Position numbers and translations under genes: made by a program. A DNA stretch of 15,788 nt. Origin: a virus. Its lineage: Duplodnaviria > Heunggongvirae > Uroviricota > Caudoviricetes. The notes beneath the pieces were generated by a model. That model was not told where the DNA came from and ran no database searches. It was given only the letters and a program-made list of their open reading frames with translations. Shown in pieces: positions 6,497 to 15,788 of the stretch. Within the stretch, counting starts at the first letter, position 1. Every line of letters begins with the position of its first letter. The stretch lies in the IMG/VR virus record IMGVR_UViG_2563366800_000002. One strand, written 5' to 3'.

Positions 6497-6520
6497 CTCC
6501 CCTGTGTGAGGTGAAAAGTT

Positions 6521-6643
6521 GCGGGTTATGCGGGTTATCCTGTGTGTAAGTGCATTAACTGTATGAATAAAAAGGAAATCAATAACCCGCACGTAACCCG
6601 CAAAACGGCAGTTATAACCCGCAAAAGTGCGATTATAACCCGC
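6521..6643. repeat. Iteron-type replication origin: GCGGGTTAT x2 (6521-6538), AT-rich spacer, then the complement ATAACCCGC in four copies (6582-6643)
   Basis: Read directly. Inverted arrangement of a 9-mer around an AT-rich core, immediately downstream of the primase gene. Confidence 0.6.
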
Positions 6644-6707
6644 AGAATTTCACCGTAAGGGTGTAAACAAGCGTAACTATCAACGTTAAAACCGGAGAAC
6701 AGACAGC

Positions 6708-8864: not shown

Positions 8865-9425
8865 ATGAAAAACACCGATTTTGAAATCCGCACATCTGAA
8901 CTGACCGCCAGCAATAAAAAGCTGGTGGGGTATGCCGTTCGCTGGAACAGCCTTTCAGAAATTATCTGGGACGAATTCCGCGAACAGTTCACGCCGGGGG
9001 CTTTTGCTGACTATCTGGCGGCGGGTAATGATGTGCGCTGCCTGTATGAGCATGACTATACCCAACTGCTGGGGCGCACCAAATCCGGCACTCTGGTACT
9101 GACTGAGGATAACACCGGGTTACGTTTTGAACTGACACCGCCGGATACCCAGCTTGGAAAAGATGTGCTTACGCTGGTGGAGCGTGGCGACATTACAGGA
9201 ATGAGCTTTGGTTTTCGCGCATTATGCGAGGAGTGGAGTATCGCGCAAAAACCGTATTTGCGTACCGTAACCGCCGCTGAACTCCGTGAAATCACAATAA
9301 CGTCGATGCCTGCTTATCCAGAATCTGGCGTGGAGATTGCCCACCGTTCGTTGTTTGCACAGCACCCTGAATTATGCCCGACAGGAAATAATCGTCATCG
9401 CTGGTCTGAGCTGGCGGGGTTGTGA
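8865..9425 (+). CDS. Prohead maturation protease, HK97 family
   Basis: 186-aa ORF with AGGGGA RBS. N-terminal pattern (ELTASNKKLVGYAVRWNSLS...GAF...LYEHD...LGRTKSGTLVLTEDNTGL...ERGDITGMSFGF) is typical of HK97-family proteases. Confidence 0.8.
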   Translation: MKNTDFEIRTSELTASNKKLVGYAVRWNSLSEIIWDEFREQFTPGAFADYLAAGNDVRCLYEHDYTQLLGRTKSGTLVLTEDNTGLRFELTPPDTQLGKDVLTLVERGDITGMSFGFRALCEEWSIAQKPYLRTVTAAELREITITSMPAYPESGVEIAHRSLFAQHPELCPTGNNRHRWSELAGL

Positions 9426-9426
9426 T

Positions 9427-10641
9427 ATGTGGTGGCCTTTTAGTCGTAAAAAAAGCGAGCAGCGTAACCTGTCCATTGATGATTTTCTGGCGCTGTCCGG
9501 CGTACCGAATACCGGATCCGGAGAATATGTTTCTGCCGGGACGGCTGAATCATTGCCTGCAGTGATGAACGCGGTTTCTGTCATCGCTGAGGCGGTGGCC
9601 ACGATGCCGTGTTATCTGTATCTGGTACGTAATGACAAGGGCAGGGAGGCGCGGGAATGGCTGGACAGTCACCCGGTAGATATTCTGCTGAATGAGCAGC
9701 CTAATTCGTGCCAGACACCTTACCAGTTTAAACGCACAATGATGCGTCACTGCCTGCTGAACGGTAACGCCTATGCGGTTATTGAGTGGGGGCAAGACGG
9801 GCAGCCAAAATCACTTCATCCTTATGCGCCGGGGTGTGTTGTACCGGAACGCACAGGCGCACACAAATACCGCTATACCATCACCGAACCCTATACAGGA
9901 ACGGTGCGCACGTATTTACAGGAAGAAGTTCTGCATCTCCGCTATGCCTCGGATGATGGCTTTCTGGGGCGTTCCCCTGTCACGATTTGCCGTGAGGCGC
10001 TTGGGCTTGGCCTTGCTCAACAGCGCCACGGAGCCAGCATTATGAAAGATGGCATGATGGCGGCAGGGATTATCACGTCAGGCGAATGGCTGGACGGCGT
10101 GAAAGGTAAACAGGCATTAGATGCTCTGGAACGCTACAAGGGGGCGAAAAATGCCGGAAAAACGCCAATCCTTGAAGGGGGCATGGATTACAAGCAACTG
10201 GGAATGAGTAACCAGGATGCGGAATGGCTGGCCTCCCGTCGCTTCTCCATTGAAGACATCGCCCGCATGTTCAACGTATCGCCTATTTTTCTGCAGGAAT
10301 ACAGCAACAGCACCTACAGCAATTTCAGCGAGGCAAGCCGCGCGTTTCTGACCATGACAATGCGCCCATGGCTGGCGAACTTCGAACAGCAAATCAAGGC
10401 CGCTTTGCTGGTGGCTTCTCCCGTACCTGGTACCCGTTATCTGGTTGAGTTTGATTCAGCCGATTTATTACGCGCCACACCCACCGAACGTTATGCCACG
10501 TATGAGAAAGGGATTAAGAACGGGATCATGAATCCGAACGAAGCCCGTGAGCGTGAGGGTATGCCGCCGCGTGAAGGTGGTGATGAGTTCAGCCAGGCAT
10601 GGAAACAGACTGTGGAAATTAAAGGGAGAAAAGATGAGTGA
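9427..10641 (+). CDS. Portal protein, HK97 family
   Basis: ATG at 9427 directly after the protease stop (the track's 9337 start would overlap the protease by 90 nt). About 404 aa, placed next to protease and capsid. Confidence 0.8.
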   Translation: MWWPFSRKKSEQRNLSIDDFLALSGVPNTGSGEYVSAGTAESLPAVMNAVSVIAEAVATMPCYLYLVRNDKGREAREWLDSHPVDILLNEQPNSCQTPYQFKRTMMRHCLLNGNAYAVIEWGQDGQPKSLHPYAPGCVVPERTGAHKYRYTITEPYTGTVRTYLQEEVLHLRYASDDGFLGRSPVTICREALGLGLAQQRHGASIMKDGMMAAGIITSGEWLDGVKGKQALDALERYKGAKNAGKTPILEGGMDYKQLGMSNQDAEWLASRRFSIEDIARMFNVSPIFLQEYSNSTYSNFSEASRAFLTMTMRPWLANFEQQIKAALLVASPVPGTRYLVEFDSADLLRATPTERYATYEKGIKNGIMNPNEAREREGMPPREGGDEFSQAWKQTVEIKGRKDE

Positions 10642-11545: not shown

Positions 11546-11553
11546 GGCCGTCA

Positions 11554-11613
11554 GAGGGGGTGGGGGTGGTTTTCAGGACGAAACCGTCCCTGCCGGACAC
11601 CGACCGCCCCCTC
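11554..11613. other. G-rich nested dyad symmetry between HNH and TerS; candidate cos / terminase recognition region
   Basis: GAGGGGGTGG (11554-11563) pairs with CCGCCCCCTC (11604-11613); inner CAGGACG ... CGTCCCTG; followed by T-rich AAATTTTTGTG. The position matches where cos lies in HK97-like genomes. Confidence 0.3.
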
Positions 11614-11663
11614 AAATTTTTGTGCACGGTAATTTTTTTGAAAATAATTGGGCGAAAAAAAAC

Positions 11664-12020: not shown

Positions 12021-13665
12021 GTACGCAGAAGGCGTAAAAAACGGCAAAATTACGGCCTGTAAACGACTGAAACAGGCCGTTAAACGGTATTTTTCTGACC
12101 TTGAAAACCCCCTTTACACGTTCGATCCGGAGGTCGTGGAGCGGTTTATTGCCTTTTCCAGGGTGTGTCCGCACGTAAAAGGCGCAATGCGCGGTAGCCC
12201 CATTGAGCTGGAGCCGTGGCAGCAGTTCGCCTTTGCGTGCATCCTGGGCTTTAAGGTTAAGGCCACCGGACGGCGCAAATACACCAGCGCATTCATTGAA
12301 GTACCTCGAAAAAATGCCAAATCCACGGTCGCCGCTATCCTGGCTAACTGGTTTCTGGTTATGGAAAACGGGCAGCAGGATATTTACACCGCCGCCGTGA
12401 GTCGTGATCAGGCGCGGATCGTGTTTGATGATGCGCGTCAGATGTGCCTTTTATCCCGACCGTTACGAAAGCGGGTAAATATTCAGGCACACAAGGTGAT
12501 ACACCCGAAAACCAACAGTCTGTTAAAGCCACTGGCAGCAAAAGCAGCAACCATTGAAGGTACAAACCCGAGTCTTGCCATTGTGGATGAATATCACCTG
12601 CACCCTGACAACGGGGTTTATTCCGCGCTTGAACTGGGAATGGGGGCACGCCCGGAGGGGCTGTTATTTGCCATCACCACATCGGGGAGCAACGTTGTTT
12701 CAGCCTGTAAACAACACTACGACTATTGCTGCCAGATACTGGATGGTGAAGAGGTGAACGAATCCATGTTCGTTCTGATTTATGAGCTGGATGATGAAAG
12801 CGAGGTTGACGATCCGGCGATGTGGATAAAGGCGAATCCCAATATCGATGTTTCCGTAGATCGTGAAAAACTGGCCTCAACCATCCAGAAAGCGCGGGGT
12901 ATTCCGTCGCAGTGGGTGGAAATGCTCACCAAGCGATTCAATATCTGGTGTCAGGGGGCTACGCCGTGGATGGGTAACGGTGCATGGGCTGAGTGCGCCG
13001 GAACGTTCACGGAGGAAGATTTACACGGTCAGGAGTGTTACGCGGGGCTTGATTTATCATCCACAAGCGACATCTCCAGCGTGTGCTATGCCTTTCCGGT
13101 TGGTAAAACCATTATGCTGGTTTCTCGTCACTATCTGCCGGAATTTCAGCTACAGAACCCCGCCAATAAAAACCGCGCCATCTATCGCCAGTGGGCAAAG
13201 GCGGGCTGGATACGCACAACACCGGGTGACTGCATTGATTATGACCGTATCCGTGATGACATCATGGCGGATGCAGAGAATTTCAATATCAGGCTGGTGG
13301 GCTTTGATACGTGGAACGCCACGCACCTGAGAACGCAGTTACAGGGGGCAGGCTTTGAGGTGGAGCCGTTCCCTCAAACCTACCTTCGTTTCAGTCCGGC
13401 GGCGAAATCGTTCGAGGTTTTTGTTAACCGGAAGGTGATTGTGCATCGTGGTGATCCGGTGCTGGCCTGGTCAATGAGTAATGTTGTGATGCAGAGTGAC
13501 GCGAACGCCAATATCAAGCCGAACAAGAAAAAATCATCCAACAAGATAGACCCGAGCGTTGCGGCGCTGATGGCGTTTGGCACATTCCAGGCTGAGCATG
13601 AGGAATTTGCATTTGATATGAGCGACAGCCAGAAAGAGCGACTAGCGGCATTTGATGGGGTATGA
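12004..13665 (+). CDS. terL: Terminase large subunit
   Basis: 553-aa ORF. N-terminus (W.EYAEGV.NGKI.A ... IELEPWQQF) and ATPase region are typical of TerL. The only in-frame start near the N-terminus is TTG at 12004, overlapping terS by 17 nt. Confidence 0.8.
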   Translation: MTAWHEYAEGVKNGKITACKRLKQAVKRYFSDLENPLYTFDPEVVERFIAFSRVCPHVKGAMRGSPIELEPWQQFAFACILGFKVKATGRRKYTSAFIEVPRKNAKSTVAAILANWFLVMENGQQDIYTAAVSRDQARIVFDDARQMCLLSRPLRKRVNIQAHKVIHPKTNSLLKPLAAKAATIEGTNPSLAIVDEYHLHPDNGVYSALELGMGARPEGLLFAITTSGSNVVSACKQHYDYCCQILDGEEVNESMFVLIYELDDESEVDDPAMWIKANPNIDVSVDREKLASTIQKARGIPSQWVEMLTKRFNIWCQGATPWMGNGAWAECAGTFTEEDLHGQECYAGLDLSSTSDISSVCYAFPVGKTIMLVSRHYLPEFQLQNPANKNRAIYRQWAKAGWIRTTPGDCIDYDRIRDDIMADAENFNIRLVGFDTWNATHLRTQLQGAGFEVEPFPQTYLRFSPAAKSFEVFVNRKVIVHRGDPVLAWSMSNVVMQSDANANIKPNKKKSSNKIDPSVAALMAFGTFQAEHEEFAFDMSDSQKERLAAFDGV

Positions 13666-13955
13666 CGAGAATGACTGAAACCGATCTACTAAAAATAATT
13701 CGCTGCGTTACCGGAGTCTGCCAGGCAACAGGCAAACCGGAGGCCAAGCAGCCGGATACCGTCACCGCTGAAAATTACGCGCGTGTGGTGGCTAAGGTGA
13801 TGCGCCGTGACGGTATTGAGCTTAACGGCGTGGATATGCGCAACATACGAACCAGAGTCCTTGAGTTGCTGGCATACCGTCGCCGTTCTCAACAACGGAG
13901 GGAGAGCGCGAAAAATACTTACCAGTGGAAGAAGCCGGAACGGTTGCGGCGGTAG
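13662..13955 (+). CDS. Hypothetical protein, last gene of the packaging operon
   Basis: 97-aa ORF; ATG 13662 overlaps the terL TGA (ATGA). Basic C-terminus (RRRSQQRRESAK). No recognisable motif. Confidence 0.4.
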   Translation: MTRMTETDLLKIIRCVTGVCQATGKPEAKQPDTVTAENYARVVAKVMRRDGIELNGVDMRNIRTRVLELLAYRRRSQQRRESAKNTYQWKKPERLRR

Positions 13956-14294
13956 ATTCCTGATATTCAGGAAAACCACGAATCTGTGGGTTTTACTGGC
14001 GCGGTTACGGCGGTGACACGCACCGAGGCAGAACAATTACCGTAGGTTAAAGCGACAGTATTCACACCAAAGGCAGAAATTAGCGGTTAACGTAACTGAC
14101 TGATATTTTCAGGAACAGCCAACGGCTGAGGCCGGAGCTATAAGAATAGCTTTGGGTACAGTCCTCAGTTTTGAGGGATGTTAACCAACTGAATAATAAG
14201 CAAACCTCAAAATTGAGTTTTGTATCTGCCTGAGTTATTTCTGTGCTAACTTGTTGATATTCCCGACGGCCCAAAAATGGGTTGGCTGGTGGGT

Positions 14295-14412
14295 GAGTTG
14301 CAGATTTGCAACTCGACCATGAAACTACGGAAACTACCCGTAGTTTGGGTAGTAAGAGCAACACCCAGATTTTGGGGCTTACTCGCGATCCCCAAATAAA
14401 GGGGATCGGTGG
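14295..14412. repeat. 118-bp structured repeat, copy A
   Basis: Six mismatches to copy B over 118 aligned positions, no indels. Starts with the near-palindrome GAGTTGCAGATTTGCAACTC and contains further inverted repeats (AAACTACGG / CCGTAGTTT; CCCC / GGGG). Confidence 0.75.
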
Positions 14413-14442
14413 CATCACTGGCCCCACTTTCCTGATGTGTTT

Positions 14443-14594
14443 GCGGGTTATTTGGGAGAGGTTGCGGGTTATTTTGAATGACTTGCGGGTTACGATTTGG
14501 CTAACATTTGAACATGTCATTTTTCAACGCATTGATATTAAATAATAAAAAATACTTAGCACGCGAAGATAACCCGCTAACCCGCATAACCCGC
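14443..14594. repeat. Second iteron cluster: GCGGGTTAT / GCGGGTTAC x3 (14443-14493), AT-rich spacer, complement ATAACCCGC-type x3 (14569-14594)
   Basis: Same 9-mer and the same inverted layout as the origin at 6521-6643, about 7.9 kb away. Confidence 0.55.
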
Positions 14595-14728
14595 ACTGTT
14601 TTGTATATATATACGAAAAATTGCATTCAGGAGGGGTAGCAAAATCCCTACCGTCTCTTATCTCTTGGAGTGCCCGCCTCTTCGAATTTTAACCCCCGTG
14701 AAATTACAAAATTTCCCTGACTGATGGC

Positions 14729-14846
14729 GAGTTGCAGATCTGCAACTCGACTATGAAACTACGGAAACTACCCGTAGTTTGGGTAGTAAGAGTAACACCC
14801 AGATTTTGGGGCTTACTTGCGATACCCAAATACAGGGGATCGGTGG
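14729..14846. repeat. 118-bp structured repeat, copy B
   Basis: Direct repeat of 14295-14412, offset 434 bp. Here the first 20 bp form a perfect palindrome GAGTTGCAGATCTGCAACTC. Confidence 0.75.
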
Positions 14847-15251
14847 AAGAAATATCGTTTCTCATATGTGAGTACCGAGGGCGGAATTCCGCCTTCGGTT
14901 ACTTATTGTGCTCATGCACAGGGAGGGGCGGGTCAAATCTCTGTACCCTGACGTCTTCCGGACTGCCCGCTCCATCGATTTTTTATACCCGCGAAAAATG
15001 CTTCACGCTGGTGGGCATGATGCGTGGGGATGCTGATAATGGGTTATTGTGGGATAGATGTCTCATACAATAAGAGATTCATAATTTGCTTTTTAATACT
15101 GTTATACTCGCCGCCTTTCTACCGTGCTCATGCTTTCGCATATTTTCGGCTTTGTGCAATAATCCGTATATCACTCGGTGTATCACTTTTAGCTAAAATG
15201 CATGGCGTGTTTGTTAATTTAACTGATTAAAATCAGTGGGATATAAAGTTT

Positions 15252-15788
15252 ATGAAACATATTGTAGAAGTAATGATCCCCGAAGCGGAGATTAAAGCGC
15301 GTATCGCCGAACTGGGTCGTCAGATTACTGAGCGTTACAAAGACAGCGGCAGCGATATGGTGCTGGTGGGTCTGCTGCGTGGCTCATTTATGTTTATGGC
15401 GGACCTGTGCCGTGAAGTTCAGGTATCTCATGAAGTCGACTTTATGACCGCCTCCAGCTACGGTAGCGGCATGTCCACCACCCGTGATGTGAAAATCCTC
15501 AAAGATCTGGATGAAGATATCCGTGGCAAGGACGTGCTGATTGTTGAAGATATCATCGACTCGGGGAATACACTGTCGAAAGTGCGTGAGATCTTAAGCC
15601 TGCGCGAACCGAAGTCGTTGGCGATTTGTACGCTGCTGGATAAACCGTCCCGTCGTGAAGTGAACGTCCCGGTTGAATTTATCGGTTTCTCGATCCCGGA
15701 TGAGTTTGTGGTGGGTTACGGCATTGATTACGCACAGCGTTACCGTCATCTGCCGTATATCGGCAAAGTGATTCTGCTGGACGAGTAA
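15252..15788 (+). CDS. hpt: Hypoxanthine phosphoribosyltransferase (host chromosomal gene)
   Basis: 178-aa product with the PRTase motif [13 protein letters not shown] and full-length resemblance to enterobacterial Hpt as recalled; host-like codon usage; TAA at the window end. Confidence 0.9.

Follow-up and report, generated by a model that had tools for sequence, protein, structure and literature searches.

Right-hand region of a capsid-forming phage satellite in Escherichia coli: a probable assembly of exchangeable cos, iteron, and hairpin modules

Results

The window analyzed here is the whole 15,788-nt IMG/VR virus record IMGVR_UViG_2563366800_000002 (Caudoviricetes), and its non-coding stretch at 14254-15015, upstream of the host gene hpt, is the subject of this study. 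A locus identical to the window was found in Escherichia coli B1172, where RefSeq places it between gcd and hpt. The genes annotated there encode, in the first part, an integrase, a DUF6387 protein, a helix-turn-helix regulator, an Icd-like protein, a DUF4222 protein, a DUF927 primase, and SSB; the rest encode a major capsid protein, an HK97-type protease, a portal protein, a head-tail connector, an HNH protein, the small (TerS; P27 family) and large (TerL) terminase subunits, and a small hypothetical protein. Integrase, primase, capsid, portal, protease, HNH, TerS, and TerL are thus all annotated at this identical locus and tail genes are absent, which is the gene content of a capsid-forming phage-inducible chromosomal island (cf-PICI). 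The initial annotation of the window had regarded 14254-15015 as the right junction of the island, organized in repeated units, one of them with iterons. The repeated organization was borne out; the nature of the junction was not, as described below. The features of the region and the sites related to it are listed in Table 1.

Table 1. Features of the right-hand region and related sites (positions refer to the window; ORF, open reading frame; att, attachment site; cos, cohesive-end site).
Feature	Position	Strand	Description
Primase-proximal origin	6520-6644	.	Same TGCGGGTTA iterons and same convergent layout as the right-end cluster; after the primase gene
Internal cos-like site in the HNH-terS gap	~11550-11663	+	G-run, CCGGACACCGACCGCCCCC, and T-tract; downstream GCACGG and T-tract
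Last gene of the satellite late operon	13662-13955	+	97 aa, phrog_1561, no Pfam; normally followed by the 118-bp element
Orphan cos-flank-like motif	14253-14293	+	TTGATATTCCCGA, small hairpin with A-rich loop, GGCTGGTGG; cleavage part absent; Chi at 14285-14292
Hairpin-rich conserved element, copy 1	14294-14412	.	No terminator-like hairpin after it
Portable block, iteron cluster and cosA	14413-14727	+	Left edge CATCACTGG; block at right end of L216 and L222 without the 118-bp element
Second origin-like iteron cluster	14442-14595	.	Three forward and three reverse TGCGGGTTA around a 70% A+T spacer
cosA, diverged HK97-family cos-like site	14630-14727	+	Predicted 10-nt cohesive sequence TGCCCGCCTC at 14671-14680
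Hairpin-rich conserved element, copy 2	14728-14846	.	Followed by the linker hairpins
Linker	14847-14905	+	Small hairpin AGAAATATCGTTTCT and strong G+C hairpin at 14868-14903, partly T-rich tail; terminator-like
cosB, SfV/SfII/ST64B/phiP27-type cos site	14921-15015	+	10-nt cohesive sequence TGCCCGCTCC at 14964-14973; Chi at 15007-15014
DNA between cosB and att core, presumed attP P arm	15016-15251	+	Arm-type direct repeat GTATATCACTCGGTGTATCACT at 15166-15187, also beside int
True attR core	15252-15270	+	First 19 nt of the hpt ORF by three-way alignment; core written ATGAAACATAYTGTAGAAG

When the gcd-hpt region of the island-free strain K-12 was aligned with the attL side upstream of int and the attR side upstream of hpt, colinearity of K-12 with the attL side extended into the hpt start codon, and the att core fell on the beginning of hpt. 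The direct repeat at both island ends reads ATGAAACATA(C/T)TGTAGAAG. Because this core is located inside hpt, all of 14254-15251 is island DNA; the stretch 14254-15015 was absent from the K-12 locus rather than being present there unchanged. In the joined form, the core is flanked on both sides by a 22-bp direct repeat (GTATATCACTCGGTGTATCACT; the second copy lies next to int), presumably the arm sites of the integrase, and a circular satellite record of 10.79 kb carries analogous paired repeats, of its own sequence, on either side of its core. The three related sequences that had been described as att-like ends finish at 14293, 14727, and 15015. They do have CCCG, an A-tract, and CTG(G/A)TGG in common, but the relationship is weaker than originally stated (pairwise identity just 51-68%), none of them matches the core, and the core lies 240 bp to the right of the last one. 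An attachment site should have a single core, found at either end of the island and one time in the unoccupied site; this was not the case for any of the three, and this identity was rejected. They are the downstream flanks of HK97-type cos sites, each combined with Chi (GCTGGTGG) or a Chi-like heptamer.

The initial annotation had also noted two related segments of ~75 bp, 65-70% alike by eye, without recognizing what they are. Their identity is 67.9% (14630-14703 vs 14922-14998), and both are cos sites of the HK97 family, designated cosA and cosB; that they are cleaved and used for packaging is a prediction. In a blastn search of the phage collection, 14921-15000 was the sole region of the window that was matched, with 91-95% identity to SfII, ST64B, SfI, SfV, SfIV, and related Escherichia phages, and 82% to phiP27. 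Compared with the cos sites of SfII, SfV, and ST64B, cosB was 92-95% identical over 80 bp, and homology of its flanks (82-95% over 53-80 bp) was found in 20 phage records. The matches lie at or beside the genome ends of linear phage records and over the annotated cos site of phiP27; the ends of IMG/VR contigs are not physical DNA ends. Approximately 31 of the 85 IMG/VR loci recovered with the 118-bp element (see below) carry cosB at the right end.

Cohesive sequences of the HK97/SfV type were found at both sites. The cohesive end of SfI was mapped experimentally as the 10-nt sequence TGCCCGCCCC (PMC3636060), from which the cosB 10-mer (TGCCCGCTCC) differs by one mismatch and with which the cosA 10-mer (TGCCCGCCTC) was likewise compared; that annotated for phiP27 is CGCCCGCCCC. 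The layout is also that of HK97 cos, that is, a G-run with TCAAATC, a C/G-rich cut region, and then ACCCG and a T-tract. HK97 TerS binds at +15 to +29 bp downstream of the cut, where it reads a C:G pair and an A-tract (PMC11331095). Motifs resembling this HK97 site (CTAACCCGATTTTTT) are present in cosA (AACCCCCGTGAAATT) and cosB (ATACCCGCGAAAAAT), ~4 nt nearer to the cut, and it is these flanks that had been taken for the ends at 14727 and 15015: that of cosA, consisting of CCCG and an A/T tract, runs into the Chi-like CTGATGG, that of cosB into the Chi octamer. The third end belongs to the orphan motif, the hairpin stem of which differs among loci yet still pairs. Terminases of HK97- or SfV-like helper phages could cut cosA and cosB, which would provide the satellite with a second packaging route.

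A further cos-like site is located between the HNH and terS genes. Its downstream motif (GCACGG) differs from those of cosA and cosB, and it is conserved in other cf-PICIs. HK97, SfI, and phiP27 have their cos at this very position. Identity to the SfII proteins is only 36% for TerS and 30% for TerL of the island, whereas cosB is 92-95% identical to SfII cos. Because of this divergence, and because of the position between HNH and terS as in the phages, this site probably serves as the native cos of the island, on which its HNH, TerS, and TerL proteins would act, with cosA and cosB as additional sites of the helper type. Satellites with other packaging genes are arranged comparably: in the lambda type, a lambda-like cos precedes the Nu1-like gene; in the DUF1441 type, a G-rich site precedes the TerS-like gene; and some of either type also carry cosB at the right end.

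Chi is strongly enriched, with 16 copies in 15.8 kb (0.39 expected from shuffled sequence), of which 13 are on the + strand. Exact octamers at 14285-14292 and 15007-15014 terminate two of the three supposed ends. In lambda, RecBCD entering at the cos-cut right end meets Chi in the active orientation. By the same rule, and with packaging proceeding from cos to terS, as the phage alignments suggest, the + strand sites would be active toward RecBCD entering a cos-cut right end of the satellite and would protect that end from degradation by RecBCD. The orientation of the Chi sites also fits the chromosomal leading strand.

Between the first copy of the 118-bp element and cosA, the second iteron cluster was found as initially described. 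Its forward TGCGGGTTA copies start at 14442, 14463, and 14484, and the reverse ones at 14570 (one mismatch), 14578, and 14587; throughout the window, TGCGGGTTA has 17 matches with at most one mismatch (3.7 expected). PICI origins consist of two iteron sets around an AT-rich core (PMC6092414), the layout seen here, and they adjoin a pri/rep gene, whereas the right-end cluster is 8 kb away from the primase gene. The crr site of the satellite P4 is such a second cluster, with iterons of the origin type at a distance from ori. Because the cluster shares both the 9-mer and the convergent arrangement with the primase-proximal origin, and because this corresponds to the published PICI layout, it represents a further origin-like site for the initiator that the island itself encodes, with a predicted role in replication; it would bind the island's primase-helicase, either as a second origin or as a crr-like site. 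The cluster also travels: in satellites L216 and L222, the right end holds the sequence that starts at CATCACTGG, spans the iterons, and reaches a cos site, with the same left joint and no 118-bp element. Right-end and origin iterons match in L222, L164, and L207.

The 118-bp repeat was reproduced with six mismatches between 14295-14412 and 14729-14846 (121 nt, 94% identity, and 434-bp spacing according to the repeat finder). It was present in 704 of 5426 complete E. coli genomes, at a median of one and a maximum of six places per genome, and in 7/7 annotated loci examined it lay inside a satellite. Four satellite types carry it, at hpt, thiM, clpS, ydgV, and yejO and also beside a lambdoid prophage. 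A dispersed intergenic repeat (REP/BIME, ERIC, etc.) was therefore rejected on copy number and satellite context. Conservation of the element (91-97%) exceeds that of the adjacent gene (72-86%). It is composed of a 20-22-bp palindrome, four 7-mers (AAACTAC twice, then GTAGTTT and GTAGTAA), and further hairpins, and the 16-mer GTAGTTTGGGTAGTAA was invariant in every recovered copy; the first scan had selected for this 16-mer, but a scan anchored elsewhere gave essentially the same loci. With these two independent anchors, IMG/VR yielded the same ~85 near-identical copies and no distant homologues. A 16-mer scan of genome contigs returned only chance matches in unrelated phyla.

Compared with shuffled sequences, both strands of the element fold far better (z −7.8 and −6.8). 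The difference in folding energy between the strands is mostly due to base composition, so that energy was discarded as a means to choose the strand. No match to the Rfam 15 covariance models was obtained at E ≤ 1 for 13600-15788, and ARAGORN detected no tRNA or tmRNA. The element had no counterpart in the phage collection (blastn) and, in PLSDB, no similarity to an origin of transfer (oriT), a single-strand initiation site (ssi), or a plasmid; the sole full-length plasmid match was an excised satellite. A coding role was dismissed, as the ORFs crossing the element look spurious. A literature search with the element's sequence strings retrieved no paper.

Downstream of the element, most contexts show a small hairpin and then a strong G+C hairpin, which a terminator scan picked up on the + strand (in the window, stem at 14874-14899, 11 pairs, tail TACTTATTGT). 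At the equivalent position, after its homologue of the small gene that normally precedes the element, a distant cf-PICI carries a simple intrinsic terminator. The 97-aa product of this gene belongs to a narrow family common to four satellite families, with only 33 clusters (50% identity) in a full HMMER scan of 1.8 billion representatives and a C terminus, YxWKKPERLRR, that is invariant or nearly so. It has no Pfam match and falls into an unknown PHROG; its AlphaFold model is a three-helix fold (predicted local distance difference test score, 76) without a match among PDB folds.

The usual form of the region is a single unit of ~312 bp, consisting of the gene stop, the flank motif with Chi, the 118-bp element, the hairpin, and cosB. 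The doubled form was found in 13 of 850 genome matches and in 4 of 85 IMG/VR loci, and the window corresponds to the common form to which one 118-bp element, the iterons, and cosA have been added. Copy 1 of the element is closer to the copy of locus L002 (97.5%) than to copy 2 (94.9%), and the joints coincide with short shared strings (TCGGTGG and CTGRTGG). We infer that satellites recombining with one another at such Chi-like joints produced the tandem arrangement, rather than duplication in place or repeated integration.

Discussion

Taken together, the window is probably a cf-PICI, a phage satellite, integrated in the first codons of hpt in E. coli, the right-hand non-coding region of which (14254-15015) acts in cis and was built from modules that are exchanged among E. 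coli satellites. Apart from the 118-bp element, the parts are of known kinds: cos, iteron origin, Chi, and att arms. From left to right, the region would comprise half a cos flank with Chi, the 118-bp element, and the block of iteron cluster and cosA, followed by the 118-bp element again with a terminator-like hairpin, cosB with Chi, and finally the attP arm with the att core. For annotation, this means that the island boundary is inside hpt, that the island has three cos-like sites, and that the region is not an att scar. For the 118-bp element, a structured 3′ end, or an insulator, for the late operon that works as RNA is our best guess; a role at the DNA level, in replication or packaging, is about as likely. 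With the hairpin behind it, the element would mark the operon's 3′ end and function as a structured RNA or as a terminator-insulator placed before cos, att, int, or a host gene.

Several observations weigh against this interpretation as a whole or in part. Searching the phage collection with cosA (blastn, E ≤ 1) gave no real match, and it could be a relic; even cosB of the window is altered, with one substitution in its 10-mer and 7 nt of the common version missing. The RNA reading of the element gains nothing from covariation, as RNAalifold on 30 copies returned a covariation term of 0.11, that is, approximately zero, with a double change in at least one sequence at 5 of 40 pairs, because the copies are too alike; the strand difference in folding energy mostly reflects composition, and a search for a sigma-70 promoter before the element found none. 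The tail of the terminator-like hairpin is not T-rich in the L221 and L194 types. At 16 of 80 element loci no cos follows, so the element is not tied to cos. Finally, the iterons of L216's own primase-proximal origin (CTGTCTACC/GGTAGACA) differ from the TGCGGGTTA copies at its right end (L216, 3960-4230 and 9037-9183), and a role in self-replication is therefore not general.

The initial annotation had considered that the units could be traces of repeated use of one attachment site or tandem miniature, non-autonomous elements, each with an att-like end. This is very improbable. It is true that the units recur with a similar end motif and that the iteron and cos block travels as a unit and occurs in L216, a satellite with a different origin of its own, so that the idea of a portable element with an origin-like site and a cis signal holds to this extent; the L221 locus, in which element and hairpin lie between direct repeats of ~40 bp, may also be cited in its favor. 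However, the core is elsewhere, the three ends do not match it, arm-type repeats of the integrase occur only near the true core, and nothing in the region records repeated use of an attachment site. Moreover, the end motifs follow the cos type and not the integrase or the insertion site, the unit being found at hpt, thiM, clpS, ydgV, and yejO alike. A second, rather unlikely explanation is that recombination between satellites and HK97-like prophages left behind cosA, the half cos flank, and possibly cosB as remnants without function, and that only the internal cos matters. The mere 68% identity of cosA with cosB, its lack of a phage match, and the half site at 14253-14293 would fit this notion, as would the many element-bearing satellites without a right-end cos and the report that cf-PICIs package themselves with their own machinery. 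It does not readily account for cosB being 92-95% identical to phage cos over 80 bp across several satellite families and insertion sites where neighboring coding DNA is at 72-86%, nor for the retention of the 10-mer and the TerS-site-like motif in cosA as well as cosB; in addition, EcCICFT073 demonstrates that two cos sites on one PICI can both function.

With respect to the 118-bp element, it is possible, if somewhat doubtful, that it acts as DNA, as a hairpin-forming or protein-binding cis site in replication or packaging; for instance, and with the same reservation, it may be a single-strand initiation signal for the satellite primase and SSB, or a binding array on its four AAACTAC/GTAGTTT 7-mers. 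Its sequence is conserved beyond what a structure needs, loops included, and the core GTAGTTTGGGTAGTAA is constant among recovered copies, although the first scan had selected for it. Furthermore, it comprises three separate palindromes, its two strands fold equally well relative to shuffles, and the four satellite families that carry it all encode a primase and most also SSB. On the other hand, it does not resemble the plasmid oriT or ssi regions in PLSDB, L216 and L222 have the same primase types but lack it, and the adjacent small protein has no recognizable nucleic-acid-binding fold. For the region as a whole, an assembly of exchangeable cis-acting modules is still the interpretation that we prefer.

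Several known systems resemble parts of this assembly. EcCICFT073 is likewise a satellite of a Gram-negative host with more than one helper-like cos, both of which were shown to function there, and with an origin of two iteron sets around an AT-rich core; its cos sites are, however, of the lambda/phi80 type, with specificity redirected by Rpp, whereas the additional sites described here are of the HK97/SfV type and located at the right end of a cf-PICI that has its own terminase and an internal cos-like site. With the cos sites of the HNH-dependent cos phages HK97, SfV, SfI, SfII, ST64B, and phiP27, cosA and cosB share the G-rich left part with TCAAATC, the 10-nt C/G-rich cohesive sequence, and the downstream ACCCG with A/T tract. 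The phage site is found between HNH and terS, whereas cosA and cosB are two sites, 293 bp apart, remote from the terminase genes and followed by Chi. The nearest analogue of the right-end iterons is crr of P4, also a second cluster of origin iterons several kb away in a satellite with a primase-helicase; different from crr, the cluster has the full layout of an origin (convergent iterons, AT-rich core), travels with cos, and occurs also in satellites with a non-matching origin. In lambda, too, Chi is oriented such that RecBCD coming from the cos-cut right end meets the octamers, an interplay with cos reportedly described by Kobayashi et al. in 1982; here, Chi density is ~40-fold above the shuffle expectation and one Chi is directly beside each module.

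The gene set (int, primase, capsid, protease, portal, connector, HNH, TerS, and TerL, no tail genes) agrees with that of the cf-PICIs of Alqurainy et al. (10.1101/2022.09.08.507074). According to published descriptions, cf-PICIs rely for packaging solely on a terminase and capsids of their own, and a keyword search of cf-PICI papers brought up no placement of cos and no mention of a right-end helper-type cos, a second iteron cluster, or the 118-bp element. Nor did the satellite papers that were read or searched describe an HK97/SfV helper-type cos on a cf-PICI, a portable block of origin and cos, or a conserved 118-bp element. A wider interpretation, which we put forward only tentatively and consider rather unlikely as a whole, is that exchangeable right-end cassettes are common to four or more packaging types of E. 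coli satellites, namely, blocks of origin and cos (in effect, a natural cosmid) or helper-type cos sites and a 118-nt structured element, more tightly constrained than the gene beside it, that would constitute a new satellite RNA or single-stranded DNA signal. If this were true, such origin and cos blocks and helper-type cos sites would let even a cf-PICI be replicated or packaged by foreign partners. For a cf-PICI that keeps near-perfect copies of helper cos, a second way into phage heads would be open and the range of helpers would be wider, which bears on its spread between strains. The portable block and the 118-bp element are, in any case, small and concrete targets for functional study.

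Observations on individual loci

Some related loci have features of their own. The circular 10.79-kb record (L218; NZ_CP148328.1, 10,790 bp), although filed as a plasmid, is the excised form of a DUF1441-type satellite, with the order gene, Chi, 118-bp element, hairpin, cosB, Chi, attP, and int. In L221 (12960-13225), an O157:H7 island between yejM and yejO, the ~40-bp direct repeats that flank the element and its hairpin are TGAACTTAAAGCAAAGCGCAAAATTGCG. The copy of the element in L164 is cut short from ~10040 onward by what appears to be an insertion sequence. The 16.5-kb record L224 (LR881103.1), filed as a "phage" from an induced prophage, represents a cf-PICI, with a tape-measure annotation on one of its genes; a simple terminator comes after its homologue of the small gene, and it has neither the 118-bp element nor a right-end cos.

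The cf-PICI L222 has a ProQ/FinO-family gene and, at its right end, two adjacent cos-like sites of different types (1955-2485 and 9720-9900), and the cargo of the lambda-type satellite L008 includes a TIR-domain gene and one for abortive infection (796-1671 and 9246-10007). Insertion in the first codons of hpt leaves the native upstream region of this gene on the attL side, so that island DNA now precedes hpt (window, 15016-15270; L001, 2088-2313). Promoter-like sites at 15012-15040 and 15135-15163 could drive hpt from within the island.

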